Assembly (NCBI GenBank): GCA_036381615.1
Contig: DASVCL010000014.1
Coordinates: 6,621-70,620 of the forward strand
Reading direction: 5' to 3'
Length of the DNA stretch: 64,000 bases
From: Alphaproteobacteria bacterium
Lineage (GTDB): Bacteria; Pseudomonadota; Alphaproteobacteria; CACIAM-22H2
This document shows positions 879 through 17,512 of this stretch, in pieces; within the stretch, counting starts at the first letter, position 1, and the number at the start of each line of letters is the position of its first letter. The position numbers and the translations under genes are program-made. Under the pieces are notes generated by a model. That model ran no database searches. It had not been told where the DNA came from and was given only the letters and a program-made list of their open reading frames with translations.

Positions 879-1076
879 AAGAGCTTCGAGGGCATCAAGA
901 TCAAGCGTGGCGACGGCGGCCTCCGAAAGGATATGGCGACCGTGGCGGCGGTGAGGTCTATGATCGGGCCGAAGATCGCGCTGATGGGCGATTGCAATCG
1001 GAGTCTCGATCCCGCCGAAGCGGGCCGGCGGCTCGCGCGCTTGGCCGAATACGATCCGCATTGGACTGAGGAGCGC
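879..1076 (+). pseudogene. fragment of an enolase-superfamily (mandelate racemase/muconate lactonizing enzyme-like) gene
   Basis: [66 protein letters not shown] matches the central MR/MLE barrel region. No N- or C-terminal parts are present in frame. Confidence 0.5.
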
Positions 1077-1278
1077 GGCGGGAGCGGAGGCCGCATCTTC
1101 TCCGGCCTCGAGTCATATCTTCGTCGAGGCGAGCGCGCATGCCCTCGCCGTCACGACAAACGATCTGGCCCCGGAATCGAACGGGAGGCGACGGCAGTCG
1201 CGCGTCGAGCATATTGAGAGCGAGCTGGCCCGCCGCGACCGGCGCTTTGTCCGGCAGCTCGCCTCCGCGGAGAGAGCG

Positions 1279-3357
1279 ATGTCTGCTGACACTGGAACTG
1301 CCGAACCTCAAGAGGAACGGCAGATGGTCGATGCGCCCGCCCTGCGGGCGATCGAGGAGGAGCCCCAGTTCCGCGAGGCTCTCGAATCCTGCCCGGCCGG
1401 CCTGATCGTCGTTGACGAAGATGGGCGACTTCTCTTCCACAACGCGCGTCTGCGCGAGCTTCTCGGCTACCGCCGGGAGGAAATGAACCTCATCGACACC
1501 AGAATGTTCTGGTGCGACCTGCAACAGAGATCGCGGATCATCGAGGCCCTGCAGGCGCGTGGTGGCCAGCTGCTGAACGAAGAGGTGATCTGGAAGACGA
1601 AGACGGGCGAACTGCGCCACCTCTTGCTGTCGTATGTTCAGGTCGCCTATCAGGGCGGCCACGTCAGCTTCGTCGGCGGCAAACGGCTGTGCTGGGTCTA
1701 CGACATCACTGTGCTCAAGCAGCGCGAGGCCCAGATCTCGGAACAGGAACGGCAATTCCGCGAGATTCTCGCCTATTGCCCCGCCGGCCTGGTGATCGTC
1801 GACGAGGAGGGCCGCCTCCTTTTCCACAACGCGCGCCTGCGCGAGCTTCTGGGCTACACCGAGCAAGAGCTGAAACTGTTCGATACGCGGCAGTTTTGGC
1901 ACGACCTCGATCATCGCGCGCGGATCATCGAGCGCCTGCGAGAACAGGGCGGGCAGCTGCTGAACGAGGAGGTGATCTGGAAGACGAAGCATGGCCAGCC
2001 GGTGCATGTGCTCATTTCCTATGTTCAGGTGGCGTATCACGGCGGGCATATCAGCTTCGCGGGCGGTCAGCGCATGTCCTGGGCCTATGACATCACGCCG
2101 CTTCGCCAGGCGGAAGAAGCACGTATACGCAGCGAGCAACGCCTGACCGAGGCGATCGAGAGCATCTCCGAAGGGTTTGCCTACTATGATGCGGAGGACC
2201 GTCTGGTCATCTGCAACTCCTGCTATCGCGAGATTCTCTATGCCGGCCTCGACGCCGACCTTCCCGCCGGAATGACGTTCGAGACCATTGTTCGCCGGGC
2301 CGCGGAGCGCGGCTACATCAAGGATGCGGAGGGATGCGTCGACGAATGGGTCGCCCAACGGCTGTTGCAGCATCGAAACCCGGGCGAGCCGCAGGTGCAG
2401 CGGCGCTCCAATGGCCGCTGGGTCATGATCAGCGAGAGACGGACCGGGGACGGCGGCACCGTGGCGGTCTATTCGGACATCACGGAGCTGAAGGAGCGGG
2501 AGGAGAGTCTTGCCGAAAAATCCGCCACACTCGAGGCGCTCTCAGGCAAGTTGGCGAAATATCTTGCGCCTCAGGTCTATCAGTCGATCTTCACGGGACA
2601 GCAGGACGTGAAGATCGCGAGCACGCGCAAAAAGCTGACGGTCTGCTTCTCCGACATCGCCGATTTCACCGAGACCACCGACAAGATGGAATCGGAGGAT
2701 CTCAACCACCTGCTTAATCACTACCTGACGGAAATGTCGAAAATCGCGCTGCAGTACGGGGCGACGATCGACAAGTACGTCGGCGACGCCATCGTCATGT
2801 TCTTCGGCGATCCGGAGACGCGCGGCGTGAAGGAGGATGCCATCGCTTGCGTCAAGATGGCACTGGCCATGCAGCAGCGGATGGGGGAGCTTGCCGACAC
2901 CTGGCGAGGTGCCGGCATCGAAACGCCCCTGCGCTGCCGGATCGGCATTCACACCGGCTACTGCACTGTCGGCAATTTCGGCAGCGAAGACCGGATGGAC
3001 TACACCATCATCGGCGGTGCGGTAAACCTCGCCTCGCGGCTGGAGCATGAGGCGCAGCCGGGTCGTATCCTCATTTCGTTCGAGACGTTTGCTCACGTGA
3101 AGGACCACATTCAGTGCGAGGAGCTGGGACATATCAGGGCCAAAGGAATCGCCTACCCGATCGCGACCTATGGTGTCGTCGCGCTGAAGGGCGATCCCGC
3201 CACGATTCAAGGCCCGGTTCGCGCCGATTTGCCGCATCTGCGGCTGGAGATTGACCCGGGATCCATGTCCGGCGACGAGCGCCGCGAAGCGGCCGCGGCG
3301 CTGCGCCGTGCGCTCGACATGGTCGAGAGGGAGCCAGGGTATAACCCGACAGCCTGA
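1279..3357 (+). CDS. PAS-repeat sensor adenylate/guanylate cyclase (class III)
   Basis: ATG with a GGAGAGAG Shine-Dalgarno (SD). Has repeated PAS-like modules and a C-terminal cyclase core ([13 protein letters not shown]...[13 protein letters not shown]...[16 protein letters not shown]...[15 protein letters not shown]). Confidence 0.9.
1366..2139 (+). repeat. in-frame tandem duplication (2 x 387 nt) of a PAS module inside the cyclase gene
   Basis: [13 protein letters not shown]... starts at 1366 and [13 protein letters not shown]... at 1753. Hand alignment gives about 84 identities in the first ~120 positions. Confidence 0.85.
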
Positions 3358-3520
3358 ATTTGCAGGCGCCGGCGCGTCTTTCCCGACAAACGCAAACGCG
3401 CAGGGGCGGGAAGGCGCAGGCCGATCCGGCGGCCCCGGAGGGCGCGGCGGCCGGACGCGCGTGCTGCGCCTGTCGCAGCGCGCGCCGTCGCCCCGGCTTC
3501 GTGACTGCCGATCGTGCCGG

Positions 3521-3569
3521 CTATGCCGGCTGCAGCGTCAGCTGTTCGAGTTCCTCGACGCGTTTGGCG
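3521..3569. repeat. left 49-bp direct repeat (orphan copy of the Rad52-family gene 3' end)
   Basis: Identical to 5687-5735 except for one T/C mismatch at repeat position 43. Encodes the same AKRVEELEQLTLQPA* on the minus strand. Confidence 0.95.
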
Positions 3570-3812
3570 ATTTTCGGAGCATGGGTCGCAGTTTCACTGG
3601 TGGAAGGTGTCCTTCTTATGCGGTTTCGGAATCTCATCACTCGAGTGATGGTCATGATGCCGCTTCTTCAAGATCACGCCCCGGTCCAAGAGCTGGCGAA
3701 GACCGGCCAGGGTGTTAGCTTCATGCCTCCAAAGTGGAATTGCGTGGGCGATCGGCCGAACGCCCCTTTTGTTTAGATGATGACGACACTGAGGGCTCGC
3801 AATTGTTGCGCC

Positions 3813-3840
3813 TTGATTTCCTCTGTTCTTCAATTATAAG
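3813..3840 (+). promoter_or_regulatory. candidate sigma70-type promoter of the cassette operon
   Basis: TTGATT (3813-3818), 16-nt spacer, TATAAG (3835-3840), about 55 nt upstream of the ATG at 3896. Pattern match only. Confidence 0.3.
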
Positions 3841-3895
3841 TTGCTTAAGGAGCGGGACAAAATTCACGAAACATGAGATTTGCAAGGGGGGCAAA

Positions 3896-4768
3896 ATGAC
3901 GATTTTTGAACTCGTCAAAGTCGCACTCGATGAACTCTACCAAGACTGTCTGAGCGTATACGGTGACGGTGCTGACCGGAAAATCATCGAGAGTATGAGC
4001 TATCTGACGAATGTCTACCGAAACTTAAATGATGAAGGTCGCGAATCTGTTAACTACAGGAATCCGGTCAATCGTTTCGCCTACGTATACAAGTATGTAG
4101 CTGCTCATGGTGACTACATTGTTCAAGTTCTTCATGAGCTGCAACGGGAGTTGGAACGTCAGGGAAGCAGATCGATCTTCACGGACAAGAAACTTCGAGT
4201 GTCATGCATCGGTGGTGGACCAGGAAGCGACATCATCGCCGTTTTGAAGTACCTGAGTGAACGCGCGGAGAAGGAACCCGTAGAAAAGGTTATTTGCTAT
4301 TTGCTTGATAGAGAGCAAGCCTGGGCAGACGTTTGGACAGAACTTGACGAACTGTTCCGCGTCAATGTGGCGCTCAACGCAAACTTCCAGCCGTTGGATG
4401 TGACAAATCCAGAATCTTGGCGGTTGCAGAGAAAGTTTCTTGAAGCTGACCTGTTTACGATGAGCTATTTTGTTTCTGAAGTTATGTCACGCAACGGCGT
4501 AAGTGACTTCTGGAAGTACCTATTCGACCATGCAAAGGTTGGCTCGCTTTTTCTGTATATTGATAACGGGAGCGATATCTTCAATTCATACTTTGATAAC
4601 CTTTGTGGAGATGCTGGGCTGACACCTATTATCAAGCAGGACAACTATCGTATTATTCCGCGGTTTTCCGAGCAGGCATCAGAACTTGCCGAATATCAAG
4701 ATAAGTTCGGCCACAATCCCAGGATTCAAGGTCATGTGAGCTATCGCGTTCTTCAGAAGAAGTTTTGA
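3896..4768 (+). CDS. class I SAM-dependent methyltransferase-like protein (290 aa), family not placed
   Basis: ATG at 3896 preceded by a GGGGGG SD. Has Rossmann motif I CIGGGPGSD (nt 4205-4231), an acidic beta2 end (YLLD), LDV and DLFTMSYF. No (D/N)PP(Y/F) motif. Low GC. Confidence 0.6.
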   Translation: MTIFELVKVALDELYQDCLSVYGDGADRKIIESMSYLTNVYRNLNDEGRESVNYRNPVNRFAYVYKYVAAHGDYIVQVLHELQRELERQGSRSIFTDKKLRVSCIGGGPGSDIIAVLKYLSERAEKEPVEKVICYLLDREQAWADVWTELDELFRVNVALNANFQPLDVTNPESWRLQRKFLEADLFTMSYFVSEVMSRNGVSDFWKYLFDHAKVGSLFLYIDNGSDIFNSYFDNLCGDAGLTPIIKQDNYRIIPRFSEQASELAEYQDKFGHNPRIQGHVSYRVLQKKF

Positions 4769-5382
4769 TGGCTGAGCTGTTCTCAGATAATGAGAAGCTA
4801 GAGCGGATTCCGATGCCGGGCGCTGAGGTTTACCTCCTGCGGCATCTTGCTCTTGATCAGGCGCCAGATCGTATTAAGGACGAACTCATCCGTGAGACAC
4901 CCTGGCGTCAGGAAGCGGTGAGTGTCTGGGGTAAACATTACCTGCAGCCACGTCTCATCGCTTGGTATGGTGATCCTGGTTGCAGGTATTCTTATTCTGG
5001 TCTCAGCCTCGACCCTCTTCCGTGGACAGAATTGTTACTTGCGCTGCGCGCCCGTGTGGAACGAGTGGTAGACGAGAGGTTCAATAGTGTGCTGCTGAAC
5101 TACTATCGCGACAACAATGACAGCATGGGATTCCACAGCGATGACGAGCGGGAGCTTGGGCCGAGACCTATCATCGCGTCTTTGAGCCTTGGAGAAGAAA
5201 GAGCCATCGTCTTCAAAGCTAAAGCAAATAAAGAATTGAAACCGATTCGGATCATGCTTGGATCAGGTAGCCTCTTGGTGATGAAGGGCGACACACAGGC
5301 TAACTGGAAGCACGCCATTCTAAAGGAGAGGCGTCCTTGCGGTCCTCGTGTGAATCTGACATTCCGGCGTATCCAAATATAA
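4768..5382 (+). CDS. alkB: alpha-ketoglutarate/Fe(II)-dependent dioxygenase AlkB (ALKBH2/3-like)
   Basis: Shows NSVLLNYYRDNNDSMGFHSDDE (H123-x-D125), WKH (H182) and RVNLTFR (R194, R200). The ATG overlaps the upstream stop as TGATG (4766-4770). Confidence 0.9.
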   Translation: MAELFSDNEKLERIPMPGAEVYLLRHLALDQAPDRIKDELIRETPWRQEAVSVWGKHYLQPRLIAWYGDPGCRYSYSGLSLDPLPWTELLLALRARVERVVDERFNSVLLNYYRDNNDSMGFHSDDERELGPRPIIASLSLGEERAIVFKAKANKELKPIRIMLGSGSLLVMKGDTQANWKHAILKERRPCGPRVNLTFRRIQI

Positions 5383-5492
5383 GTTTTCTGAACCCAGGTG
5401 GGTGATCGCGACATCCACGTCAAAGTATTTGAATAGATAAGAAGGCAGGCGTCTCTAGATTCTTGTCATTGATAATCATCCGACTTTAGGCC

Positions 5493-5547
5493 GCAACCGC
5501 CTAGACCGGGGAGATTCGAAGGCATCTCGAATCTGAGATTGCGGTTG
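5493..5547. other. nested imperfect hairpin in the cassette 3' non-coding region
   Basis: Outer arms GCAACCGC (5493-5500) and GCGGTTG (5541-5547). Inner perfect 8-bp stem AGATTCGA (5512-5519) and TCGAATCT (5527-5534), flanked by GAGATT direct repeats. Confidence 0.5.
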
Positions 5548-5686
5548 TGCGCTTGGGTACATTGAAGCGTCCGACAGTGTTGGCTGCCTGAAAGCTTTAT
5601 TGCAGCAGCTCGTCTGATTGCATGCTCAATACGTCAGAAGGTGAGAATAACCCGTCGAGGCATTTCGGCGCCGTCAGACGTATCGC

Positions 5687-5735
5687 CTATGCCGGCTGCA
5701 GCGTCAGCTGTTCGAGTTCCTCGACGCGCTTGGCG
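5687..5735. repeat. right 49-bp direct repeat (functional 3' end of the Rad52-family gene)
   Basis: See 3521-3569. It starts exactly at the TAG stop (5687-5689, minus strand). Confidence 0.95.
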
Positions 5736-6421
5736 GCCTGTGGGAACCGCTCGGCGAGGCGCCGTGCGGTGGCGGCATTGGTGGTCCACCACTCCGCGGC
5801 ATTGCCGGCCCGCATCGCGCTCTCGAGCGCCTCGAGGAAGGCGCCGCCGCGATCGTACATCACGGCATCGCCCGTATCCGGGTCGATCAGCTGGAAGCCG
5901 CGCGGGGCCGTCGGCGCGCGCTTCATGCGGCGCGTCAGCAGGTCCTGCAGTTTCGCGGTTTCGTGGGCCGCAATCCTGACCGAGCGGCCCGAGGCCTCGA
6001 TATCGACCCAAGGTGCTTCCAGATCATAGAGGTAGCGTCCGATCCCCCAGCGCACGGCGGCGCGCTTGAACGCGTCCGAGAGCGCGCCCTTTTCCGCCTC
6101 GAAATCGGTGTCGCCAGCGCCGTCGGCCTTCCAGATCCATTCGTCGCCGATGCGGATGCCCAGCTCGCACACCGTCTTGCCGTTCGCGTGGGGATACCGG
6201 CACTGCCAGTTCTCGGGGCCGCAGACCTCGTCGAGGCGGTCCATCACGTCGCGCGCGTCGATGTAGGCGAGCGCCATGCCGCGCTTTCTGTCGGCGGTGG
6301 TCGAGCCGACACGCCAGCTCACGCGGTCGGCCGGAAAGGGGGCGGTAAGGGCCTTGATGTCGATCACGTCGCTGTCTCCGTCTTCGGCTGTGTTGATGTC
6401 GTCGCTTCGTAGAGGGGGCAT
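5687..6421 (-). CDS. Rad52/22-family single-strand annealing protein (phage recombinase type)
   Basis: LTAPFPADRVSWRVG...ALAYIDARDVMDRLDEVCGPENW...KGALSDAFKRAAVRWGIGRYLY is the family signature. Start chosen at the internal ATG 6421 (MPPLRSDD...); the ORF-track start at 6574 looks like shadow extension. Confidence 0.8.
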   Translation of the reverse strand: MPPLRSDDINTAEDGDSDVIDIKALTAPFPADRVSWRVGSTTADRKRGMALAYIDARDVMDRLDEVCGPENWQCRYPHANGKTVCELGIRIGDEWIWKADGAGDTDFEAEKGALSDAFKRAAVRWGIGRYLYDLEAPWVDIEASGRSVRIAAHETAKLQDLLTRRMKRAPTAPRGFQLIDPDTGDAVMYDRGGAFLEALESAMRAGNAAEWWTTNAATARRLAERFPQAAKRVEELEQLTLQPA

Positions 6422-6603
6422 TGGCCGCCATTCACGTCGCGGCAGTAGAGATAGGGCGGGAAGTCGTCCCACGTCTTCCGGGTCACGAACCCGAAACCTT
6501 CGATCCGGCGGTGCTTGATGCACAGCCACCGCCAGGGCGGATCGTGCCGATCCACCTTGTAGACGTGCGCGCACGTCTCGCAGAACGTCGGCTCATGCCG
6601 CAT
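6364..6603 (-). CDS. small Cys-rich phage-type protein (79 aa)
   Basis: MRHEPTFCETCAHVYKVDRHDPPWRWLCIKHRR...CRDVNGGQCPLYEA has CxxC plus further Cys residues. Its ATG at 6603 overlaps the stop of the upstream ORF (6593), and it overlaps the Rad52-family start. Confidence 0.5.
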   Translation of the reverse strand: MRHEPTFCETCAHVYKVDRHDPPWRWLCIKHRRIEGFGFVTRKTWDDFPPYLYCRDVNGGQCPLYEATTSTQPKTETAT

Positions 6604-6847
6604 CGGCCTTTTCCGGGGACATGGTCGTTGCCGGCGCATCGGGGCCCTCGACGGAGTGCGGGTCCGCCGTCTCGGCGATCCGCTCGAGGTCCTTGATGAT
6701 GCGCATGAGCGCCTCGTGCGCGCCGGCCGACATCCGCTCGCCCCGCAGCAGGCGCGCGAGTTCGACCGCATCGTGCTGGATGTAGTTCATCCGACGCGTG
6801 ACTTCCGTGGCGATGAAGAGACGATCCGCCGTGCTGTAGTGCGTCAT
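6593..6847 (-). CDS. hypothetical phage-type protein (84 aa)
   Basis: MTHYSTADRLFIATEVTRRMNYIQHDAVELARLL... has protein-like composition and is coupled to the next ORF. No family recognised. Confidence 0.5.
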   Translation of the reverse strand: MTHYSTADRLFIATEVTRRMNYIQHDAVELARLLRGERMSAGAHEALMRIIKDLERIAETADPHSVEGPDAPATTMSPEKADAA

Positions 6848-7138
6848 TTCGAATAAGGATGTAGAAGGGCAGGGCTCGTTGCGGGGTGGCTTTCGCCCGA
6901 GAACGCGCGGCGGATATGGCGCCCGCCGGCCGCGGCATATGGCGCCATGCGCGCCACGGGTTCGTCGCCGGCAGGATTACCCGCCCGCCGTCACCGCACG
7001 CGCCCCGCATTTCCGGTCCGGCCGCCGGCCTCATTGGGCCGAGGATTTCCGCCATTCGCGGACGCCGTCCGTCTCCACGCGTGCCTGTGACTTCGATCTC
7101 GGTGACCGCAATGTAGGAGACATTATCCCTACGGTCAA

Positions 7139-7152
7139 TAGGAAAACTCCTA
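7139..7152. promoter_or_regulatory. operator-like palindrome TAGGA-AAAC-TCCTA
   Basis: Perfect 5+4+5 palindrome in an AT-rich patch, with the same half-sites as 8021-8034. A looser GTAGG...CCTAC repeat lies at 7113-7132. Confidence 0.45.
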
Positions 7153-7283
7153 CGGCCAAGATGAAGAACCTGAGCCGGACCCGCGGGCGCGCACGCGGCC
7201 CGTCGCGCCGATGTCGCGCACTGCCGGCGCTGCCCGCGCGACCGGCGGCGGAGGTGTCGAAAAAGCGTGTTATGGGGCCGATA

Positions 7284-7985
7284 TCAGCGCCGGTTGTACT
7301 TGCCGACGATGACGTGCGCCTGCTGCCATTCCTGCCGGCTGGCCTGGAACTCGCGCGCCGGATTCCATTGCTTGAGCCGCCAGCTTCGGTCGTTCCAGCC
7401 GACCAGATTCTTGACCATGGCGATCATGTCGCGATCGGGCTGATGCTTGACCAGGAGCACGTCATCGCCGCGCAGCGGCGGCAGCGATGGATGGACGAGC
7501 ACCATGTCGCCATGGCGGTAGGCCGGCTCCATCGAATCCCCGACGACATAGACGGCGAACGCCTGCGCGACATGCTCCAGCGGCCTGGGTCGAGGGACCC
7601 AGTCGATCGGGTCCGGGGTGACCAGCATGCCCGTCGGGCCACCCTGCGCACTGGCATAGACCGGAAGATCGCGGTCTTTTGCGGTGCTGCCGGCGAGTGC
7701 GACCGGATCTATCCGGCGGGCGGCGCCATCATGCCGTTGCGGGCCGGTGCGGCCGTCGGCGCCATCCACGCGCCGCAGCGCCCGCTCGTCGACGCCGAGG
7801 ATGGCCGCCAGCGCCGGGCGTATCTTCTCCGGGATCTCGCGCGGCGTCCCGCGCTCGAGGAACTGCTGCAGATAGGCGTGGTTCCGACCGAGCTTGAGCG
7901 AGACCTCGGCAAGGGAGAGTCGCAGATCGGCGATGCGCTGCCGCACCAGCTGGCGGACGCGATCCTGTGGTTCGGTTTCGGCCAT
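7284..7985 (-). CDS. CI/LexA-like repressor (XRE HTH + S24 peptidase)
   Basis: N-terminal HTH (LSLAEVSLKLGRNHAYLQQFLER) and C-terminal S24 domain (VVGDSMEPAYRHGDMVLV...LLVK). Start taken at ATG 7985 (MAETEPQ) behind a GGGGGAG SD; the ORF-track start at 8021 would sit inside the operator. Confidence 0.85.
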   Translation of the reverse strand: MAETEPQDRVRQLVRQRIADLRLSLAEVSLKLGRNHAYLQQFLERGTPREIPEKIRPALAAILGVDERALRRVDGADGRTGPQRHDGAARRIDPVALAGSTAKDRDLPVYASAQGGPTGMLVTPDPIDWVPRPRPLEHVAQAFAVYVVGDSMEPAYRHGDMVLVHPSLPPLRGDDVLLVKHQPDRDMIAMVKNLVGWNDRSWRLKQWNPAREFQASRQEWQQAHVIVGKYNRR

Positions 7986-8020
7986 GGCGAAGCTCCCCCG
8001 GAAGCCTGCGAATCGGGACA

Positions 8021-8034
8021 TAGGATAAATCCTA
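8021..8034. promoter_or_regulatory. operator-like palindrome TAGGA-TAAA-TCCTA upstream of the repressor gene
   Basis: Perfect palindrome, extended by ATAGGAT (8020-8026) and ATCCTAT (8038-8044). Sits about 36 nt upstream of the repressor ATG. Confidence 0.45.
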
Positions 8035-8105
8035 CATATCCTATTGCACGCCGCAGGGCCAGCGCCGCGGCAAGGCCAAGCCCGGACCCGTGCCCCCGGG
8101 CAGGG

Positions 8106-8945
8106 TCAGCGGTGGCCGTCCACCGGAGCGGGTTCGCGGCCGCGCGGCACCGGCAGATACTCGACGCCCCGCTGGGTGCGGACGGGCTGCGGGTAGAGGT
8201 TCATCAACTCCAGCACTTCGGGCGGCATGTCGGTATTGACGTTCAGCCCCAGCTCCTTCGCCTCGGCGGCGGAAATCGGATAGTCGTGCGTCCAGGCGCC
8301 CTCGGTCAGCTTGCGTGCAATCGCCTCGGCGCGTTCGGGCGGCATCTTGCCCTTGAGCAGGTTGATCGCCGCGTTGCGCATCTGGTCGATCGCCTTGCGC
8401 CCGACATCGGCGAGGATGAGCGTGTTGTCATCGATTTCGGCGACTGGCTTGCGGTCGAGAACCGTTAGGATCGATGCCGCCGGCAGTTGTCCGAGCTGAG
8501 GGTCGATCGGACCGAGCACCGAGTGCGTGCACATGACGATCTCGTCCGCGGCGAGCGCGATCAGCGTACCGCCGGACATGGCGTAGTGCGGAACGAAAAC
8601 CGTCACCTTCGACGGATGGGCATCGACCGCCCGGGCGATCTGCAGCGCCGCGACGGCAAGCCCACCCGGCGTGTGCAGGACGATGTCGAGGGGAATGTCG
8701 TCGTCGGTCATCTCGATCGCGCGCAGGACGTCTTCCGAATCGTTGATGTCGATGTACCGCATCACGGGAAAGCCGAGCAGGCGCATCGTCTCCTGCCGGT
8801 GCACGAGGACGATCACGCGCGAGCCGCGCTGCCGCTGGATCTGTGCGATCTTCCGCTGGCGCTGGATCTCCATCAGTTTCTGCCGGAACAGCGGCTGTAT
8901 CGCGGTGAAGATGATGAAGATCCAGAAGAGGTCGAGGATCGACAT
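8106..8945 (-). CDS. SDH-family Clp-fold serine protease (membrane-anchored)
   Basis: N-terminal TM segment (MSILDLFWIFIIFTAIQPLF) then LHTPGGLAVAALQIARAV...VPHYAMSGGTLIALAADEIVM...GPIDPQ. ATG at 8945 behind a GGAGAA SD. Confidence 0.8.
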   Translation of the reverse strand: MSILDLFWIFIIFTAIQPLFRQKLMEIQRQRKIAQIQRQRGSRVIVLVHRQETMRLLGFPVMRYIDINDSEDVLRAIEMTDDDIPLDIVLHTPGGLAVAALQIARAVDAHPSKVTVFVPHYAMSGGTLIALAADEIVMCTHSVLGPIDPQLGQLPAASILTVLDRKPVAEIDDNTLILADVGRKAIDQMRNAAINLLKGKMPPERAEAIARKLTEGAWTHDYPISAAEAKELGLNVNTDMPPEVLELMNLYPQPVRTQRGVEYLPVPRGREPAPVDGHR

Positions 8946-9092
8946 GGGGAGTTCTCCGTACTCTGTCGCGGCCCATGCGGACCGCTGCCGATCGGTGCCT
9001 GTGATCCTAGGCCAGGTTGGGCGGCACCGGCCAGCGCGACGGGTGCGGCAGAGAATTCGGAAGCCGTAACCAGCCGGCGGCACAAACGACGA

Positions 9093-9119
9093 AGGGGCGG
9101 CCGGTCGCCGGCCGCCCCT
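9093..9119 (-). terminator. GC-rich hairpin downstream of the TRAP operon
   Basis: AGGGGCGGCCGG-TCG-CCGGCCGCCCCT, a 12-bp perfect stem 31 nt after the stop at 9150. The following T tract on the minus strand is weak. Confidence 0.45.
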
Positions 9120-9149
9120 CCATGCGCGCGGATCGTCTTCGCCCGCGTT

Positions 9150-10172
9150 TCAGTTCGCGCCCTTGTCCTGTGCGGCGATGGCCGCGAACAGCTTGTCCAC
9201 CAGCGGCTTGCCGACTTCGCGTTCGACATACTCGCGGACCGGGCCCTGGGCCTTCTCGCGAAAGGCGCCGATCTGCTGCGGACTCAGGACGGTGACGGTC
9301 ATGCCGACCTTCTCGAGGATGTCCTTGGCGTTGAGGTCCTGGGCCGTGGTCATGCCGCGATGGATCCACTTGGCGATCTCGACGCCGTCGCGCACGACCT
9401 TCTGCTGCTCCTTGCTGAGGCTCTGCCAGAAGCGTTCGTTCATCAGATAGGCGTGAATGCTGTAGACGTGCGCGTCGAGGGATATGTGCTTCTGATGCTG
9501 ATAGAGGCTTGCGGCCAGGATGTTGGTGACGCTGTTCTCCTGGCCGTCGACGACTCCCTGCTGGAGCGCCGTCGGAAGCTCGGCCCAGGGGATGGCCGAA
9601 GGGCTGGCGCCGAGCGCTTCGACCAGGCGCTGGAAGACCGGACTCGGCTGCACGCGGATCTTGAGGCCCTTCATGTCGTCGGGCGTGCGGATCGGACGCA
9701 CGTTGTTGGTGAAATGGCGGATGCCGTTGTCGGCAAGCGCGAGCGCCCGGATGCCGACCTGCTTCGCCATCATCTCGCCGAACTCCTGGCCGAAGGGGCC
9801 GTCCATCACCGCCCAGGCCTGTGCCTGGTCGCGGAACAGGAAGGGAATGCCGAATGCGATCACCGGCTTGAACGTTCCGGCGATGGCGCCGTCATGGACA
9901 ACGGCCATTTCGAGCGTGCCGAGACGCAGGCCTTCCATGGTCGGCGCATCCCCGCCGAACTGCCCGGCTGGGAAGATCTCGACCTTCAGCGTGCCGCCGG
10001 AATTCGCCTCGACATAGGCCTTGAAGGCGGTCGCGGCTGCGTGCTTGGGCTGATCCAGCTTGGCCGGCTGGAAATGCGCGTACTTGATCGTTTTCGTCTG
10101 CTGCGCGGCGGCGGCGTGGACGGTGAGTGCCAGTGCCGCGACCGCCATGAGCGGAATCTTCAACATCGACAT
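9150..10172 (-). CDS. TRAP transporter substrate-binding protein (DctP family)
   Basis: Signal peptide MSMLKIPLMAVAALALTVHAAAA followed by a DctP-type fold sequence. ATG at 10172 behind a GGAGGAGAC SD. Confidence 0.9.
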   Translation of the reverse strand: MSMLKIPLMAVAALALTVHAAAAQQTKTIKYAHFQPAKLDQPKHAAATAFKAYVEANSGGTLKVEIFPAGQFGGDAPTMEGLRLGTLEMAVVHDGAIAGTFKPVIAFGIPFLFRDQAQAWAVMDGPFGQEFGEMMAKQVGIRALALADNGIRHFTNNVRPIRTPDDMKGLKIRVQPSPVFQRLVEALGASPSAIPWAELPTALQQGVVDGQENSVTNILAASLYQHQKHISLDAHVYSIHAYLMNERFWQSLSKEQQKVVRDGVEIAKWIHRGMTTAQDLNAKDILEKVGMTVTVLSPQQIGAFREKAQGPVREYVEREVGKPLVDKLFAAIAAQDKGAN

Positions 10173-10195
10173 CGTCTCCTCCCTTTGGCAGTGGT

Positions 10196-11485
10196 TCAGC
10201 GCGTGTAACCGAGCAGGTGGGGCAGCGCGAGGCTGACCCACGGCACATAGACCACCAGCACGAGCACGATCAGCTCGGCGCACAGGAATGGCACAATGGC
10301 CCGCGACAACGCCTCGAAGCGCAGGCGCCCGACCGCCGACATGACGAACAGAACGGCGCCGACCGGCGGTGTGATCATGCCGATCGTGAGGTTGAGCACG
10401 ATGGCCATGGCGAAATGGAGCGGGTCGATCCCGACCTGGAGTGCGATCGGCACCAGGACGGGCACGAGAATGATGACGGCGGGCAACGTGTCGATGAACA
10501 GGCCGCAGATCAGCACGAAGATGTTGACGATCGCGAGAATGAGCAGCGGCTCGCGAGTGAGCCCGCCGATGAGGCCGGCGATGGCCTGCGGGATCTGCAG
10601 GATCGTGAGCAGCCACGCGAACAGCGACGCCATCGAGACGATGAGCAGTGCGGCCGAGGTCACGAGCGCGCTCTGCACGAATACCTTCTGGATCACCCGC
10701 CAGTTGAGGTGCCGCGTGACGAACAACCCGACGAACAGTGCGTAGACCACCGCGACTGCGGACGCCTCGGTCGGCGTGAAGGCGCCCGTCAGAATTCCGC
10801 CGATGATGATCAGCGGCATGAGAAGCGCCGGCATGGCCTTGACCATTGCACGGCCGCGTTCGGACCAGCTCACCCGCGCCGTGGCGAACTGATAGCCGCG
10901 GCGCAGCGAGATGATGTGGTTGGTGACGGCGAGCGACAGTCCGAGCAGCACGCCGGGAACGACACCCGCCAGGAACAGACCCGCGACGCTGACGCTGTTG
11001 TCGGTGATGGCGTACACCACCATGATGATGCTCGGCGGGATGATCGGCCCGATCGTCGCCGTCGAAGCGCTGAGGGCTGCCGCGTAGTATTGATCGTATC
11101 CGGCCCGCTTCATCATCCGCATGAGGATCGCGCCCGGCCCGGCCGCATCGGCGAGCGCCGACCCGCTGATTCCGGCGAACAGCGTGTTCGTGAGGACGTT
11201 GACGTGGCCGAGGCCGCCGCGGATATGGCCGACCAGGCTGTTGGCGAAGCGCAGCAGGGAGCTGGTAATCCCGCTCGCCGTCATGAGGTCGGCCGCGAGA
11301 ATGAAGAACGGCACGGCCATCAGCGGAAACGAGTTTATGCCGTTGAACAGCCGCTGCGGCACGGTCAGGAGCGAGAACCGTCCGTCGATCAGAAGCGCAA
11401 GGAAGCCGGCGCCGCCCATGACGAACGCGATGGGGGCGCCGATGACCATGAGCACGAGGAAACCGGCGAACAGGATCGTGGCCAT
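10196..11485 (-). CDS. TRAP transporter large permease (DctM family)
   Basis: 429-aa polytopic membrane protein (MATILFAGFLVLMVIGAPIAFVMGG...) of typical DctM type. Confidence 0.9.
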   Translation of the reverse strand: MATILFAGFLVLMVIGAPIAFVMGGAGFLALLIDGRFSLLTVPQRLFNGINSFPLMAVPFFILAADLMTASGITSSLLRFANSLVGHIRGGLGHVNVLTNTLFAGISGSALADAAGPGAILMRMMKRAGYDQYYAAALSASTATIGPIIPPSIIMVVYAITDNSVSVAGLFLAGVVPGVLLGLSLAVTNHIISLRRGYQFATARVSWSERGRAMVKAMPALLMPLIIIGGILTGAFTPTEASAVAVVYALFVGLFVTRHLNWRVIQKVFVQSALVTSAALLIVSMASLFAWLLTILQIPQAIAGLIGGLTREPLLILAIVNIFVLICGLFIDTLPAVIILVPVLVPIALQVGIDPLHFAMAIVLNLTIGMITPPVGAVLFVMSAVGRLRFEALSRAIVPFLCAELIVLVLVVYVPWVSLALPHLLGYTR

Positions 11486-11488
11486 GGT

Positions 11489-12028
11489 TCAGACCTGCCG
11501 GATCGAGGCCTGGGCTTCGATCGTGGCGGCATCCTCCGGCTCCAGGCTTTCGGGATGCTCGAATTCGCGGGCCACGTAGTCGCGCATGACCAGCACGAAA
11601 TGCAGCGCGAACACCAGTGCGCCGCAGGGTATGGCGAGATAGGGAATGCCCAGCGGGATGTTGAGGACCGGCGTCTCCTGGATCCAGGCAAAGGCCGCAA
11701 ACTGGAATCCGAGGATCGTCAGGGCGACGACGAAGGCGAAGATGCCGACCGCGACGATCCAGCGAACGCAGCGGCGGGCCCGTTCCGGAAGCAGATCCTG
11801 CGCAAGCTCGACCGCGACGTGACGGCCCTCGCGCATGGCGAGGCCTGCGCCCAGATAGGTCAGCCAGACCATGAGGTACTGCGAAATTTCCTCGGCCCAG
11901 ATGATCGAGAAGCCGAACCCGTACCGGGCCAGGACGTTCGCAAAGACGCACGCGACCATCGCCGCCATCATGGCGACGAGCACGGCCCGATTGGCCGCCA
12001 CCAGCCAGCGCTCGAGACAGGCCAGCAT
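11489..12028 (-). CDS. TRAP transporter small permease (DctQ family)
   Basis: 179-aa protein with 4 TM segments, directly upstream of the DctM gene. Confidence 0.85.
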   Translation of the reverse strand: MLACLERWLVAANRAVLVAMMAAMVACVFANVLARYGFGFSIIWAEEISQYLMVWLTYLGAGLAMREGRHVAVELAQDLLPERARRCVRWIVAVGIFAFVVALTILGFQFAAFAWIQETPVLNIPLGIPYLAIPCGALVFALHFVLVMRDYVAREFEHPESLEPEDAATIEAQASIRQV

Positions 12029-12068
12029 TTCCTCCCCTTCGGCGCGATGTTCTTGTTTCAGGACGCGC

Positions 12069-12578
12069 CTAACGGATGAACTGGTCGATATACGCGTCGC
12101 CTAGGCCGACCTTGCGATAGTGCGCACGGCACATGTCGATCTTGGTGAACACGTCTTCGTAGGCGGTCGGCTTTCCGGTCTCGTCGACGTAGATCATCGC
12201 CCCGGAGATGTTGAAGAAGGTGATCATTTCGTCGTCGGAATCCACCGTCAGCGTGTGGACCTCGCCGGGCGGCTCGTAGACGAAGCTGCCGGGTGTCGCG
12301 ACCCAGTCGTACTCGAGGTAGCGCCAGCTACCCTTGATCACGTAGCCGACGACGATCATGGGATGGCGATGCCGACTCAAAATGCCCGCGCGCCGAACCC
12401 GCAGCAGGTTGCACCAGCCGCCGTTGACCGTATTGAGCAGCAACGGCCGGAACCAGACATTGTCGGCCTGCGGAACCCACACGCGCTCGTCGTCCGGGAT
12501 TGCCTGGGTGACGATCTCCGGCCGGATACCGACCGCCGAGAGCATCGGAATCTGGGATTTCGCAGCATTGTCCCGCAT
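12069..12578 (-). CDS. cupin-fold dioxygenase (2,4'-dihydroxyacetophenone dioxygenase-like)
   Basis: SRHRHPMIVVGYVIKGSWRYLEYDW...YEPPGEVHTL cupin motifs. ATG at 12578 behind a GAGGAGGA SD; the longer ORF-track start would overlap the SDR gene. Confidence 0.7.
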   Translation of the reverse strand: MRDNAAKSQIPMLSAVGIRPEIVTQAIPDDERVWVPQADNVWFRPLLLNTVNGGWCNLLRVRRAGILSRHRHPMIVVGYVIKGSWRYLEYDWVATPGSFVYEPPGEVHTLTVDSDDEMITFFNISGAMIYVDETGKPTAYEDVFTKIDMCRAHYRKVGLGDAYIDQFIR

Positions 12579-12600
12579 GTGTCCTCCTCGAGACGGGGTC

Positions 12601-13326
12601 TCAGGCGATTGAATAGCCGCCGTCCACCGGCAGGATGACACCGGTAACGAACCGGGCGGCGGCCGAGCATAGGAACAGCACGACGTCAGCGACCTCCTCG
12701 GGCTCGCCCCAGCGGCCGAGCGGCGTGCGGCTGAGGATCGGCGCCTCGCGCGCCGGATCGTTCCGGACGGCCTCGGTCATCGCGGTCCGGATCCAGCCGG
12801 GCGCCACGGCGTTGACGCGAATGCGATCGGGCGCCCAGGCAACGGCCAGCGACTTGGTCAGCTGCGCGACGCCGCCCTTGCTCGCCGCGTAGGCGGGGGC
12901 GTGCGGCGCGCCGAAGAAACTGTACATCGACGCCGTGTTGACGATCGCACCACCGTCCGCCGGGAACTTCGACTTGGCCGCGGCGCACACCCGCATGGTG
13001 CCCTCGAGATTGCAGTCGATGACCCGCTGAAAATCGGCGACACGGAACTCGTCGCGTCGGCGGATCATGCCCGCGCAGTTTACGACGATGTCGATCCGGT
13101 CGAGCGCCGAAACGAGGGTCGCGACCGAGCCGTCGCTGGTGACGTCGACCTCGCGGAGATCGATGCCCTGGAACCCGACTTCGCGGCGCGCCGTCTCGAC
13201 TTCCACCTTCGGTCCGCTCGCGACGGTCCTGCACCCTGCCTTCGCGAATGCCTTGGCGATCGCCGCACCGATGCCGCGCGTGCCGCCCGTGACCAGGGCG
13301 ACCTTCCCCTCAAGATCCGGATACAC
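12601..13326 (-). CDS. SDR-family oxidoreductase
   Basis: Has TGGTRGIG, NCAG and YAASKGG motifs. GTG start behind an AGGGAGAA SD. Confidence 0.9.
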   Translation of the reverse strand: MYPDLEGKVALVTGGTRGIGAAIAKAFAKAGCRTVASGPKVEVETARREVGFQGIDLREVDVTSDGSVATLVSALDRIDIVVNCAGMIRRRDEFRVADFQRVIDCNLEGTMRVCAAAKSKFPADGGAIVNTASMYSFFGAPHAPAYAASKGGVAQLTKSLAVAWAPDRIRVNAVAPGWIRTAMTEAVRNDPAREAPILSRTPLGRWGEPEEVADVVLFLCSAAARFVTGVILPVDGGYSIA

Positions 13327-13368
13327 GTTGACGTTTCTCCCTTTGCAACGAACGCTATCACCCCTAGT

Positions 13369-13391
13369 ATCTCATATGCAAGATATGAGAT
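13369..13391. promoter_or_regulatory. perfect 9-bp inverted repeat ATCTCATAT-N5-ATATGAGAT in the SDR/GntR divergent region
   Basis: Read directly from the sequence. It overlaps the ATG of the GntR-family gene. Confidence 0.45.
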
Positions 13392-14116
13392 TGCCGGAAC
13401 CGATGCGCGCACGACCTTCGGGCACCGTCGCCGAAAGCCTCGCCAAGATCGAACGGCCGAGATCCCTGACCGATCTCGTCTGCGACCATGTGCGCGCGAG
13501 TATCGTCGAGGGACGTCTGCAACTCGGCGCCGCCGTTTCGGAGAACGCGCTGGCCGCGACGCTGGGCATCTCGAAGACGCCGGTGCGCGAGGCACTGCTT
13601 CGCCTCAAGGCCGAAGGCCTGATCGAGGTATTGCCGCAGAAGGGGAGCTTCGTTTTCAAGCTGCGGCCGGAGGAGGTCGCCGAGATCTGCGAGCTGCGCG
13701 CGATCCTGGAACGGGAGGCGCTGCGTCTCGCCTGCCGGCGCGATCACGAATCGCTGGCCATGGCGCTTGCCGACATCGTCCGCGAGATGGGGGCAGCGCG
13801 CGCGGCGCGGGATTTCGACCGGTACCGCGAGCTCGATGCGGCGTTCCATCGGGCCATTTTCGAGCGCTGCGGGAACCGGCTGCTGGTCGGCGCCTACAAT
13901 GGAATCGTGTTCAAGGTTCAGGCGCTGCGCACGCGGCTTGCGCATGAGCCGGAGCACGTGCGCCGGGCCGATCGCGAGCATCACGAGATCGTGCGGCTCG
14001 TGCGCGAAGGCAAGTTCGCGCACGCCGGCCGCCTGCTGGCGGCGCACGTGCTCGGCACCAGCCGGTCATATCAGCGGGCGATCGGCAAGAGCCGGCCGGC
14101 CGACGGGGACGGATAA
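13376..14116 (+). CDS. GntR-family transcriptional regulator (FadR/FCD subfamily)
   Basis: Winged HTH (ENALAATLGISKTPVREALLRLKAEGLIE) plus an FCD-like C-terminal domain. Start at ATG 13376 or 13385. Confidence 0.85.
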   Translation: MQDMRLPEPMRARPSGTVAESLAKIERPRSLTDLVCDHVRASIVEGRLQLGAAVSENALAATLGISKTPVREALLRLKAEGLIEVLPQKGSFVFKLRPEEVAEICELRAILEREALRLACRRDHESLAMALADIVREMGAARAARDFDRYRELDAAFHRAIFERCGNRLLVGAYNGIVFKVQALRTRLAHEPEHVRRADREHHEIVRLVREGKFAHAGRLLAAHVLGTSRSYQRAIGKSRPADGDG

Positions 14117-14161
14117 GGCGGGTGTCGATACTGCCGGGGACGGGACTGCCGCCCGGCGCCC

Positions 14162-15271
14162 TCAGGCCTGAGCCCGCATGGCGGCCGCGTGCGAAGGTCG
14201 CAGTTGCGATCCCGCCTCGCGGACATAGCGCTCGAGCTCCTGCGCGCGATGCCGCGCGGTGTGACAGAGCAGGAACCGTGCGCGTGCCGCCTGTCCGATG
14301 CGGCGCCGCTCGGCCTCGCCGATGTCGAGCATGTCCATGATCTCGCGTGCCGTTTGCGCGACCAGGATCTCCTTGCCCGGCGCGAACAGCGAGTCGAGTC
14401 CTTCCCACCAGTCGCTGATGATGACGCTGCCGCAGGCCGCGGCTTCGAACAGACGGACGCTTGGTGACCAGCCCGCGCGAACCATGTTCGCCCGCGTGAT
14501 GTTGAGGGTGAAGCGCTGCGCATTGAAGAAGCGTCGATGGCGGTTCGGGGCGAGGTGAGTGATGCGGGCAACGTTGCGCGGCCATGCGATGTCGTCGGGA
14601 TATTGCGGGCCGGCGACGACGAAGCGGGCACTCGGTCGCGTGCGCGCCGGCTCGATGAGCAGCCGGGCCAGTTTCGGCTGCCGGTCGGCACTGTAGGTGC
14701 CGAGATAGCCCAGATCCCACCGGAGCGGAGCCTTCGCGGGATAGTAGAGGTCCGGGTCGACGGAGCAGTAAAGGGGGCGCGCCATGCGCGCGCCGAATTC
14801 ATGTTCCAGTCGTCGCAACAACGGCCCGCCGGTGAAGGACAGGTAGAGGTCGAAGGCGGGTACCAGATCGGCGGATAGATAGGCGCATGTTCCGCGCTCG
14901 AGCGCCGCAACGGTTTCGGGCGTGTCGATATCGTAGAAGGCGGTGACGCCGCCCGCCGTATCGAGGACCCATTCGGCGACGGCATGTCCGTCCGGAACGA
15001 AGGAGCCGACGATCACGACGTCGGCGGTGCGTACGATGCCGGTGAACCGGCGCTTGAGGTCGGCCACGCCATGATAGAGGCAGGCGCGCGCGAACGGCGG
15101 CTCGGGCATGTCTCGGTTCGCCGCGTACCAGGGGACATCCCGTTCGAGGAAGACGATCTCGTGGTCACGGCCACGGAGTTCCCGCGCGAGCGACCGGTAC
15201 GTAGTCGCGTGGCCGTTTCCCCATGACGAGGTGATCGACAGGCCGAGAATGACGAACGACAGGGCCCCCAT
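14162..15271 (-). CDS. CgeB-like/DUF3880-type glycosyltransferase, paralogue 3
   Basis: Paralogous to the next two genes and shares the N-terminal signature SSWGNGHATTY. Its ATG overlaps the upstream stop (TGATG). The family name is from memory. Confidence 0.65.
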   Translation of the reverse strand: MGALSFVILGLSITSSWGNGHATTYRSLARELRGRDHEIVFLERDVPWYAANRDMPEPPFARACLYHGVADLKRRFTGIVRTADVVIVGSFVPDGHAVAEWVLDTAGGVTAFYDIDTPETVAALERGTCAYLSADLVPAFDLYLSFTGGPLLRRLEHEFGARMARPLYCSVDPDLYYPAKAPLRWDLGYLGTYSADRQPKLARLLIEPARTRPSARFVVAGPQYPDDIAWPRNVARITHLAPNRHRRFFNAQRFTLNITRANMVRAGWSPSVRLFEAAACGSVIISDWWEGLDSLFAPGKEILVAQTAREIMDMLDIGEAERRRIGQAARARFLLCHTARHRAQELERYVREAGSQLRPSHAAAMRAQA

Positions 15272-16362
15272 CACACGGCCATGCGTTCGTGCGGCACGGT
15301 TCGACCGCGTAGGATCGCGTCGAGCTGCCGCGCCCGGTGAGCGTAGGTGTGCTCAGCCAAGACCCGCGCCCGCGCCGCCGCGCCGATGCGACGCGCCCGA
15401 GCGGGATCCAGGGCGGCGAGATGCGATGCCACCTCGTCGCCCGAGCGGGCGACCAGAATTTCCCGGCCCGGCTCGAGGAACTGCTCGATTCCCGGCCACA
15501 TGTCGGTGATCAGGCATGCGCCTGCGCCGGCGGCCTCGAAGATCCGGGTCGGCGGCGAGAAACCATAGCTTGCCATGCTTGCCCGATTGACGTTGAGCAC
15601 CGCCATCGACGAGCAGTTCAGGGCATTGTGCTGATGCGTGTAGACGTGACCGTGATAACGGACATTGGCCGGCCTCGGCTTGTCGGCCCATCCGCTGCCG
15701 CCGAGCAGAAATCGTCTGGCCGGGAGCGCTGCGGCCGCGAAGAAGAAGAACTCGTCCACGCGGGCCTCGCGGTCGGGGAGCCGGTTGCCGACGAAGCAGA
15801 GGTCCGCGACGAGGTCGGGGTCGGGGGCCACCGGATGATGCGTGGACGGATCGAGCGCGTTGTAGATCGGGATGCAGGCGCGTGCGCCGAGCGCCCGGTA
15901 GGCGGCAACCACCGGCTCGCCGCCGCCGTAGGTAAGGACCATGTCGTAGCGCGGGACGAGGTCGCGCAGCGGGTCGTGCGCGGCACGGTGCAGGCGATCG
16001 AGGGTGGCCGGCGCATCGACGTCCCAGAAGATCGCGACCGCGCCGGGCCGGCGGGCGGCGAGGACGCCGCTTTCGAGCCTGTCGTCGAAAACGCCGACAC
16101 CGCTCGCCTTCACCAGAACGTCGGCGGCGCGGGCCTGATCGAGGACGTGATCGACCGCCGACTCCGCCGCGTCATAGACCACGACCCTGGCCCATTCCGG
16201 CGCGGCGATGTCGCGATGGGATTGACGGTCGTAGGCATCGGGCTCGTAGAACGTGATCTGATGGCCGCACGCGGCAAGGGCACGCAGAAGGCCGCGATAA
16301 TAGGTCGCCGCGCCATTCCAGTAGGCGGAAAGAAGGCTCGATCCGAAGAATGCGACATGCAT
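15271..16362 (-). CDS. CgeB-like/DUF3880-type glycosyltransferase, paralogue 2
   Basis: MHVAFFGSSLLSAYWNGAATYYRGL..., with C-terminal RIFEAAGAGACLITD like GT-B enzymes. It abuts the upstream stop (TGAATG). Confidence 0.65.
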   Translation of the reverse strand: MHVAFFGSSLLSAYWNGAATYYRGLLRALAACGHQITFYEPDAYDRQSHRDIAAPEWARVVVYDAAESAVDHVLDQARAADVLVKASGVGVFDDRLESGVLAARRPGAVAIFWDVDAPATLDRLHRAAHDPLRDLVPRYDMVLTYGGGEPVVAAYRALGARACIPIYNALDPSTHHPVAPDPDLVADLCFVGNRLPDREARVDEFFFFAAAALPARRFLLGGSGWADKPRPANVRYHGHVYTHQHNALNCSSMAVLNVNRASMASYGFSPPTRIFEAAGAGACLITDMWPGIEQFLEPGREILVARSGDEVASHLAALDPARARRIGAAARARVLAEHTYAHRARQLDAILRGRTVPHERMAV

Positions 16363-17502: not shown

Positions 17503-17512
17503 TCCCGGCCTT

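Follow-up and report, generated by a model that had tools for sequence, protein, structure and literature searches.

An att-like scar marks an integrase-less 2.1-kb islet behind a Rad52-type gene in Alphaproteobacteria

We analyzed a 64-kb stretch of alphaproteobacterial DNA (the window; contig DASVCL010000014.1 of assembly GCA_036381615.1) that contains a 2117-bp interval (the insert, positions 3570-5686) bounded by two direct copies of the 3' end of a gene encoding a Rad52/Erf-type single-strand annealing protein (5687-6367, minus strand). The comparisons presented below indicate that the insert is the fossil scar of one horizontal insertion. The repeats (3521-3569 and 5687-5735) are identical at 48/49 positions and differ solely at position 3563 (T) and its counterpart 5729 (C); their 42-nt identical part occurs exactly twice in the window and in none of 100 shuffled sequences. 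On the minus strand both copies translate to AKRVEELEQLTLQPA followed by the stop codon, as the mismatch affects a single lysine codon synonymously (AAA at the left repeat, AAG at the right one). The right copy provides the Rad52 gene with its functional 3' terminus and is probably an imported replacement for the original end. The left copy is detached: it comprises the last 15 codons and TAG stop codon of the Rad52 gene, terminates merely a mechanical open reading frame (ORF) of 44 codons (3521-3655, minus strand), and is probably the displaced original gene end. An earlier note made from the sequence of the window had described 49-bp repeats with one T/C mismatch, a right copy that ends the Rad52 gene and a left copy attached to no gene, and this description is exact in every detail. 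The same holds for its account of a low-GC interval of 2117 bp, as G+C bases fall to 26/60 at 3901-3960 from 51/60 at 3421-3480; overall, the insert has a G+C content of 49.2%, as compared to 63.2% in the left flank and 67.1% in the right flank. A repeat search stretches the pair to 57 nt at 93% identity (3513-3569 and 5679-5735). The boundary of the repeat that lies inside the gene is sharp, with 6/24 matches past that edge, and the boundary on the side of the stop codon is fuzzy, with 12/24 matches past the stop codon (P roughly 0.03-0.04, estimated by hand with the chance match rate set at ~0.3). This weak signal hints that the right end of the insert may derive from a Rad52 locus elsewhere. 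The repeat search revealed no inverted repeat joining the two ends of the insert.

The insert carries two plus-strand genes that form a translationally coupled operon, in which the ATG of the second gene overlaps the stop codon of the first within the sequence ATGA. The first gene (3896-4768) encodes a 290-residue protein resembling class I S-adenosylmethionine (SAM)-dependent methyltransferases, although its match to Pfam Methyltransf_34 is weak (3.9e-8). The protein carries the motif CIGGGPGSD, of which C-x-GGGPGS is the invariant part, and its AlphaFold model (predicted local distance difference test score of 89) returns 446 methyltransferase-fold matches in the Protein Data Bank (PDB) at E <= 1e-3. 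The model resembles class I SAM methyltransferases generically, none of them closely (template modeling scores of 0.4-0.5), and comparison with Trm9 and with the methyltransferase domain of ALKBH8 yields this generic fold and no specific match; at the sequence level the protein has no relative in the PDB. Based on the Rossmann-like fold of the model and the glycine-rich motif I, the protein is assigned to the class I SAM-dependent methyltransferases as a putative enzyme. The second gene (4768-5382) encodes a 204-residue AlkB-family Fe(II)/2-oxoglutarate (2OG) dioxygenase (Pfam 2OG-FeII_Oxy_2, 3e-34), whose closest solved relatives are the human ALKBH3 and ALKBH2 structures (E about 3e-35). The residues of the iron triad (H123-S-D125 and H182) and of the 2OG motif (R194-x5-R200) are intact, and the combination of an HxD...H triad and an RxxxxxR motif on a predicted 2OG-FeII_Oxy_2 fold points to membership in the AlkB family. 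The protein is not an AlkB equivalog, as it scores far under the NCBIfam cut-offs for this group (27 bits versus 231). In PADLOC, the sole hit is that of the 2OG domain to the C-terminal half of the CARF_2OG model (8.7e-45); the gene set matches no known anti-phage defence system in this resource, and the methyltransferase matches none of its defence models.

ALKBH2/3-type enzymes are repair demethylases for 1-methyladenine and 3-methylcytosine lesions in DNA and RNA. The obligate coupling of the dioxygenase to the methyltransferase suggests that the two proteins may constitute a nucleic-acid methylation/demethylation module, and the most probable role of the cargo is that of an accessory module for repair or conflict whose substrates are methylated bases in nucleic acids. 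Among its possible roles we rank an accessory for repair or protection ahead of an epigenetic writer/eraser, and the latter ahead of a toxin/antidote-like conflict system. Literature searches found no description of a methyltransferase/AlkB pair of this kind, and the plus strand presents no convincing promoter or terminator for the operon.

The uninterrupted form of the locus has been kept by a sister lineage. Three contigs of separate sample origin (L008, ENA ERZ858510, 80 kb; L009, Logan SRR4028141; and L010, JGI 3300005281) have an empty site with one copy of the 49-bp block each. The lineage they represent is 88-90% identical to the window backbone, and shares with it a protease gene, an S24 repressor gene, small ORFs and the Rad52 gene (93% amino acid identity). 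Positions 9496-10049 of the reverse complement of L008 align to window positions 3002-3569 and positions 9998-13438 align to window positions 5684-9187, and the 52 bases common to both alignments match both window repeats. The junction in L008 reads ...CGTGCCGG / 49-bp block / GCCTGCGGG..., which corresponds to window position 3569 joined to 5736; this is the empty-site junction that the earlier note had proposed to look for, and it is present in all three contigs. The block in L008 has a T at the polymorphic site, specifying the lysine codon AAA, which is also the codon used in the related loci L104 and L110. Together with the 8 nt on its left, the left repeat of the window is identical to the single copy in L008 at 57/57 positions. 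A constraint on an attB site at the DNA level was considered as the cause of this identity and was rejected as unsupported, since distant homologues keep the tail as a peptide only. The flanks of L008 diverge from the window by 21% on the left and by about 10-16% on the right; the empty site is therefore an old allele and not a recent excision product. The empty-site lineage (L008, L009 and L010) also lacks most of a PAS-cyclase gene located to the left of the insert (window 1240-3001); remnants of this gene (window 971-1239 and 3002-3569) are ~79% identical, and it is probably a pseudogene there.

The insert is present in four alleles: the window, L004 (ERZ4232226, 2.65x coverage), L011 (a GTDB representative metagenome-assembled genome labeled "uncultured Rhodospirillales", from SRR5251193) and L024 (ERZ795043, a 466-kb contig with 25x coverage). 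The junctions do not differ among the four, nor does the T/C phasing of the repeats. A 5.2-kb tract of the window (1126-6298), which spans the cyclase gene, the insert and most of the Rad52 gene, is 99.85-99.9% identical to L011 and L024, with 5-8 differences, and elsewhere these contigs are ~89-90% identical to the window. The borders of the tract, 1126 and 6298, are the same in L011 and L024, and outside of it both contigs are identical to L008, i.e. they have the backbone of the sister lineage. As the tract is nearly identical on backbones that are ~10% divergent, a 5.2-kb segment with an intact cyclase gene was recently exchanged between the lineages, and the identical junctions within the shared tract therefore indicate one insertion that later spread via homologous recombination. 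No sign of independent re-insertion is present among the filled alleles. The suggestion in the earlier note that the cassette might be mobilised in trans thus finds no backing in its distribution, as all filled alleles share the junctions and the 5.2-kb tract, which reflects homologous recombination and not re-insertion. We consider it highly probable that the locus records a single, real insertion with a true empty site.

Recombination at this locus extends into the Rad52 gene itself, which in a comparison of window positions 5741-6400 with L004, L008 and L011 is a patchwork of short blocks that four haplotypes share in varying combinations. Three window-specific changes at 5810-5831 are an example of the patchwork, which stems either from intense recombination or from strain mixtures that were assembled into chimeras. 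L004 was considered as a second independent context for the insert and was rejected as unreliable, given its 2.65x coverage, its mosaic Rad52 gene and its possibly chimeric nature. Window positions 9188-11995 and 13722-20562 are absent from L008, L011 and L024 and represent further lineage-specific indels.

The target of the insertion encodes a protein of 226 residues in public records that matches Pfam Rad52_Rad22 (3.6e-19) and PHROG 1097 (Erf-like ssDNA annealing protein, 1.3e-53), and its homologue P0121 is 100% identical to it over 226 residues. An alternative upstream start codon is possible (ATG at 6421). The predicted N-terminal Rad52_Rad22 annealing domain supports assignment of the gene to the Rad52/Erf type. 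In spite of the insertion the ORF is intact and retains its conserved C-terminal tail. In this Rad52 subfamily (homologues P0121-P0145) the tail, which is encoded by window positions 5687-5750, reads roughly FPQAAKRVE-x-L-x-QLA-x-x-PA; it may be a partner-binding peptide, which would explain the need for an insertion to preserve it.

The Rad52 gene is the outermost member of a compact gene module, the remainder of which (6364-8021, minus strand) consists of small ORFs at 6364-6603 and 6593-6847 and an S24/cI-like repressor gene at 7284-8021. All genes of the module are co-directional with the Rad52 gene, at whose stop codon the module ends on its outer side; a third repeat copy was looked for at the opposite edge and not found. 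To the right of the module lie a gene for an SDH-family Clp-fold protease (NCBIfam 7.9e-124) and then more host-like ORFs, and the left flank of the insert contains the host PAS/adenylate-guanylate cyclase gene (1279-3357, plus strand). No tRNA genes are present in the 64-kb window. The earlier note had labeled the Rad52 gene as a phage gene; the family assignment is sound, but the gene's setting is a four-gene module between host genes and not a prophage. Modules composed of an S24 repressor gene, 1-2 small ORFs and a Rad52 gene are also located between unrelated host genes in L012, L104, L105, L110 and the contig that encodes P0130; in L012, the module sits between cox-type genes. The modules (window 5687-8021, L008 8421-10681, L012 8371-10747, L104 6140-7998 and L110 6870-8717) are compact (~2.4-3.5 kb), have neither an integrase nor structural genes, and occupy different chromosomal sites in several alphaproteobacterial lineages. 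This type of module looks like a portable or domesticated unit and not like a randomly decayed prophage.

Within the insert, the operon is framed by two non-coding arms. The left arm (3570-3895, 326 nt, 51% G+C) contains ORFs that have no match in Pfam, PHROGs or PADLOC, and one of them, a 79-codon ORF on the minus strand (3594-3833), has no homologue among 1.8 billion representative proteins searched with phmmer. K-mer analysis located a perfect 16-nt palindrome, CATCACTCGAGTGATG, in this arm (3637-3652), 68 nt from the repeat, which could be a protein-binding site. The right arm (5383-5686, 304 nt, 51% G+C) has no ORF that is free of stop codons, matches no Rfam family and folds no better than shuffled sequences (z = -0.73). 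Neither arm has a blastn or tblastx match to any other locus, and neither yields an Rfam family or a significant RNA structure.

The gene pair is widespread outside of this lineage. The methyltransferase has 520 homologues at E <= 1e-3, and a metagenome scan confirmed at least 157 loci of the pair, of which 80 were fetched for locus analysis. An AlkB-like gene lies downstream in every case in which the identity of the methyltransferase reaches 48% and the downstream sequence leaves room for it. The pair forms a low-GC islet in Lysobacter capsici (49% versus 66-67% G+C) and in alphaproteobacterium SO-S41 (48% versus 69%). More generally, it has ~42-55% G+C in hosts with 60-72% G+C (L005 7500-9600, L006 7750-9500 and many of L022-L103), with no recombinase or repeats consistently attached. 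Two of the loci are informative about its mobility. In L048, the pair comes immediately after a tmRNA gene and the gene of a P4-type tyrosine integrase, as the first cargo of an island (6136-9481), and in L041 it directly follows a tRNA-Arg gene and lies beside a Hypoth_Ymh gene (7699-10773); the gene pair therefore travels as island cargo. The earlier note had recommended a search for the same cassette at other Rad52-type genes, and outside of this lineage none was found, as none of about 80 loci of the pair has a Rad52 neighbour. The sequences on either side of the pair are not conserved among the cassettes. BLASTN searches of phage and plasmid collections with window positions 3300-8100 recovered a conserved 250-nt Rad52 stretch and left the cassette unmatched, an exact 24-mer from the repeat has no hits in viral contigs, and a scan of viral contigs with the methyltransferase profile returned two loci, neither of which has a Rad52 gene or flanking repeats. 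Palindromic elements of 54-70 nt that resemble repetitive extragenic palindromic (REP) sequences flank cassette-adjacent genes in L005 (6056-7233 and 9536-10387) and L006 (6426-7735); in neither of these genomes, Lysobacter capsici and alphaproteobacterium SO-S41, do the REP-like elements enclose the cassette.

To explain how the insert arose, we tentatively favor, at somewhat less than an even chance, an integrase-type insertion that supplied a replacement gene end, with the integrase later lost, i.e. an element like those termed cis-mobilizable or a decayed integrative islet. In this scheme, the incoming DNA would have brought along a version of the terminal 49 bp of the target gene, in the form of an attP site that mimics the 3' end of the gene, and the exchange would have taken place at the gene-internal edge of the 49-bp block or within its last 6 nt. 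As a result, the Rad52 gene would now be terminated by the imported copy (AAG), and the resident end (AAA) would have been displaced to the far side of the insert. The agent would have been a tyrosine-type integrase, encoded either by a larger parent element that later lost it or by another element acting in trans. The lysine codons suggest that the attached end came with the insert, because the detached copy has AAA, like the empty site, and the attached copy has AAG; they fit the proposal of the earlier note that the element supplied a replacement gene end. The combination of a sharp inner boundary and a fuzzy outer boundary is as might be expected if an att-like site had been copied off a Rad52 locus. 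We favor the integrase route because integrases characteristically leave an almost perfect copy of a gene end that begins at the stop codon, and because the same cargo occurs on integrase-bearing islands.

Several observations weigh against this preference. In agreement with the earlier note, which reported two genes and no recombinase between the repeats, profile searches detected no recombinase domain or remnant there: six-frame translation, Pfam, PHROGs and PADLOC revealed no integrase or excisionase gene or remnant in 3570-5686, and tblastx, tblastn against plasmids, and phmmer against the 1.8 billion representatives revealed no recombinase remnants in the arms. Recombinase motifs and a tblastn search with the L048 integrase, an approach of low sensitivity, identified nothing convincing as an integrase in the 64-kb window. 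K-mer analysis of the arms detected no arm-type repeats. Searches of phage, plasmid, viral, genome and metagenome sequences returned no related element that has both an integrase and the same att sequence, and the closest methyltransferase outside of this lineage is 67% identical in protein, as compared to 99% within it. An accessory phage-type gene is also an unusual integrase target. Ten other Rad52 loci and the empty-site contig L008 contain no second copy of their own 3' ends, and at ~30 other loci of the gene pair with both flanks available no flanking direct repeats were found, except in L024, which belongs to the same lineage; given that repeats and a Rad52 neighbour are lacking elsewhere, the repeat-flanked arrangement is peculiar to this insertion. 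Lastly, a homology-driven origin gains plausibility from the very active homologous recombination seen here. The earlier note's proposal of a site-specific insertion into the 3' end of a gene consequently stands in part: the insertion is at a gene end, but direct evidence for site-specific recombination did not emerge, as no integrase, remnant, arm-type repeat or second event was found.

A close rival is homology-anchored capture (homology-facilitated illegitimate recombination or '3'-end displacement'), which we regard as somewhat less probable than the integrase route. A donor Rad52 module with the gene pair downstream would have recombined with the resident module inside the Rad52 gene, and an illegitimate joint would have formed 49 bp before the resident stop codon, with the resident end orphaned as a result; in a variant of this process, a circular fragment would have entered through a Campbell-type single crossover via the 49-57 bp of homology, possibly helped by the Rad52-type protein. 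Capture needs no recombinase, which matches the absence of recombinase traces, and homologous recombination is rampant at the locus, as seen in the 5.2-kb tract shared across lineages and in the mosaic patches of the four Rad52 haplotypes. Donors are plausible, since the module is common in related alphaproteobacteria and its downstream content is variable. The detached copy equals the empty-site sequence, the 12/24 similarity past the stop codon would represent the diverged downstream sequence of the donor, and the illegitimate joint would account for the sharp inner boundary. Orphaned 3' ends, with homology-anchored recombination as the proposed cause, have been described for type VI secretion system (T6SS) effector-immunity and Rhs arrays (PMC5361080). 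The position of the stop codon at the start of the duplication, the lysine codons and the repeat boundaries fit integrase-type insertion and capture alike. However, among the roughly 80 loci outside of the lineage the donor arrangement of Rad52 gene and downstream pair does not occur, and a near-perfect duplication starting exactly at the stop codon is the classic signature of an integrase. Homology-facilitated illegitimate recombination is also rare, and in studies of transformation it usually deletes recipient DNA without creating a duplication. In a bolder version of a homology-driven origin, the methyltransferase/AlkB pair would be a recombinase-free mobile cassette that enters by short-homology annealing over 49 nt, with the Rad52-type protein as its de facto integrase and a new 'writer/eraser' conflict or repair system as its cargo; we hold this scenario to be highly improbable.

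A mini-element that is still active and mobilised in trans by a resident integrase overlaps with the integrase route, and might be inferred from the fact that both repeats are intact (48/49) and that Logan unitigs of the cassette stop within the repeats, which is compatible with a circle or an integrated form alike. We judge it improbable, as unitig breaks at k = 31 are the outcome of any 49-bp repeat, one insertion event accounts for filled alleles whose flanks are common to all of them, and neither a second site nor a close copy of the cassette is present in 5.8 billion proteins or in viral, plasmid and phage collections. End-joining at a staggered double-strand break would need neither prior homology nor a recombinase: nicks 49 nt apart would have produced overhangs that were filled in, and the T/C difference would be a later mutation that could still be early, as it is common to all filled alleles. 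To our knowledge no bacterial mechanism duplicates 49 bp of a target, the repeat is placed precisely at the stop codon, and the 12/24 similarity past the stop codon is not expected of a target duplication, and we accordingly give this explanation quite a small chance. An assembly artefact, or membership of the repeats in a larger segmental duplication, is effectively refuted. All of the sequences are derived from metagenomes, and one of them, L004, combines 2.65x coverage with a possibly chimeric mosaic Rad52 gene, but the window, L004, L011 and L024 display the same junctions and T/C phasing in different samples and with different assemblers, and similarity stops at the repeat ends. The earlier note had named either of these outcomes, in combination with a lack of empty-site alleles, as one that would overturn its interpretation.

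The locus provides a clean natural pair of filled and empty alleles, in which a tiny accessory operon has been grafted onto the end of a gene that remains undamaged, and the insert has spread between lineages ~10% apart through ordinary homologous recombination, with no part played by mobility of its own. It also draws attention to two units of wider distribution. One is the methyltransferase-like and ALKBH2/3-like gene pair, which is persistently low in G+C and is found on integrase-bearing islands and, as an islet, in many proteobacterial genomes of high G+C, and the other is the compact four-gene module of an S24 repressor, two small ORFs and Rad52 that recurs at different alphaproteobacterial sites. 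If the origin of the insert was homology-driven, the locus would document the short-homology capture of foreign genes at the gene of an annealing protein.

Comparison with known systems excludes two types of mobile DNA and reveals partial likeness to several others. Transposons, insertion sequences and miniature inverted-repeat transposable elements are ruled out, as there are no terminal inverted repeats and no transposase, and the duplication of 49 bp contrasts with one of 2-15 bp for such elements. An integron gene cassette is ruled out as well, because no attC-like fold is present (z = -0.73 for the right arm), there is no Rfam match and the repeats are copies of a gene end. The cargo is reminiscent of ALKBH8, which pairs an AlkB domain with a methyltransferase domain, as it couples an AlkB-family dioxygenase of the ALKBH2/3 kind, with its catalytic triad intact, to a class I SAM methyltransferase; however, in the cargo these are two separate proteins. 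Similar to a phage moron, the insert is small, compositionally deviant and the size of a transcription unit, lies beside a phage-type gene and has functions unrelated to the neighbouring module. However, morons normally lack 49-bp duplications of the end of a neighbouring gene, and the insert resides in a four-gene module instead of a phage genome and has no clear promoter or terminator. The arrays of Rhs, contact-dependent inhibition and T6SS effector-immunity genes offer a parallel at the level of gene architecture, as in these systems newly arrived DNA takes over the 3' terminus of a conserved gene and the old terminus persists downstream as an orphan (PMC5361080). The array ends differ in sequence and encode toxin/immunity variants, whereas the ends of the insert are 98% identical and encode the same peptide, and its cargo is unrelated to the target gene.

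The insert bears a likeness to the elements known as CIMEs (cis-mobilizable elements), which lack an integrase and keep attL and attR sites at the 3' end of a gene, as exemplified by the fda-associated elements of Streptococcus thermophilus (PMC5704250). Like them, the insert is bounded by direct repeats (48/49) that are att-like by sequence, with the 3' end of the target gene forming one of the two; it lacks genes for integration or transfer, leaves its target gene intact and has a foreign base composition. The insert differs in that the collections searched contain no known parent integrative and conjugative element, integrative and mobilizable element or phage that shares its att sequence. 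In addition, it is just 2.1 kb in size, its target is an accessory Rad52-type gene instead of a conserved housekeeping or tRNA gene, and its one detectable spread occurred by homologous recombination, with any integrase specificity being putative. The insert is thus an islet of a known kind, which lacks an integrase and carries an att-like scar where it abuts the 3' end of a gene; its target is unusual, as is its uncharacterised cargo.

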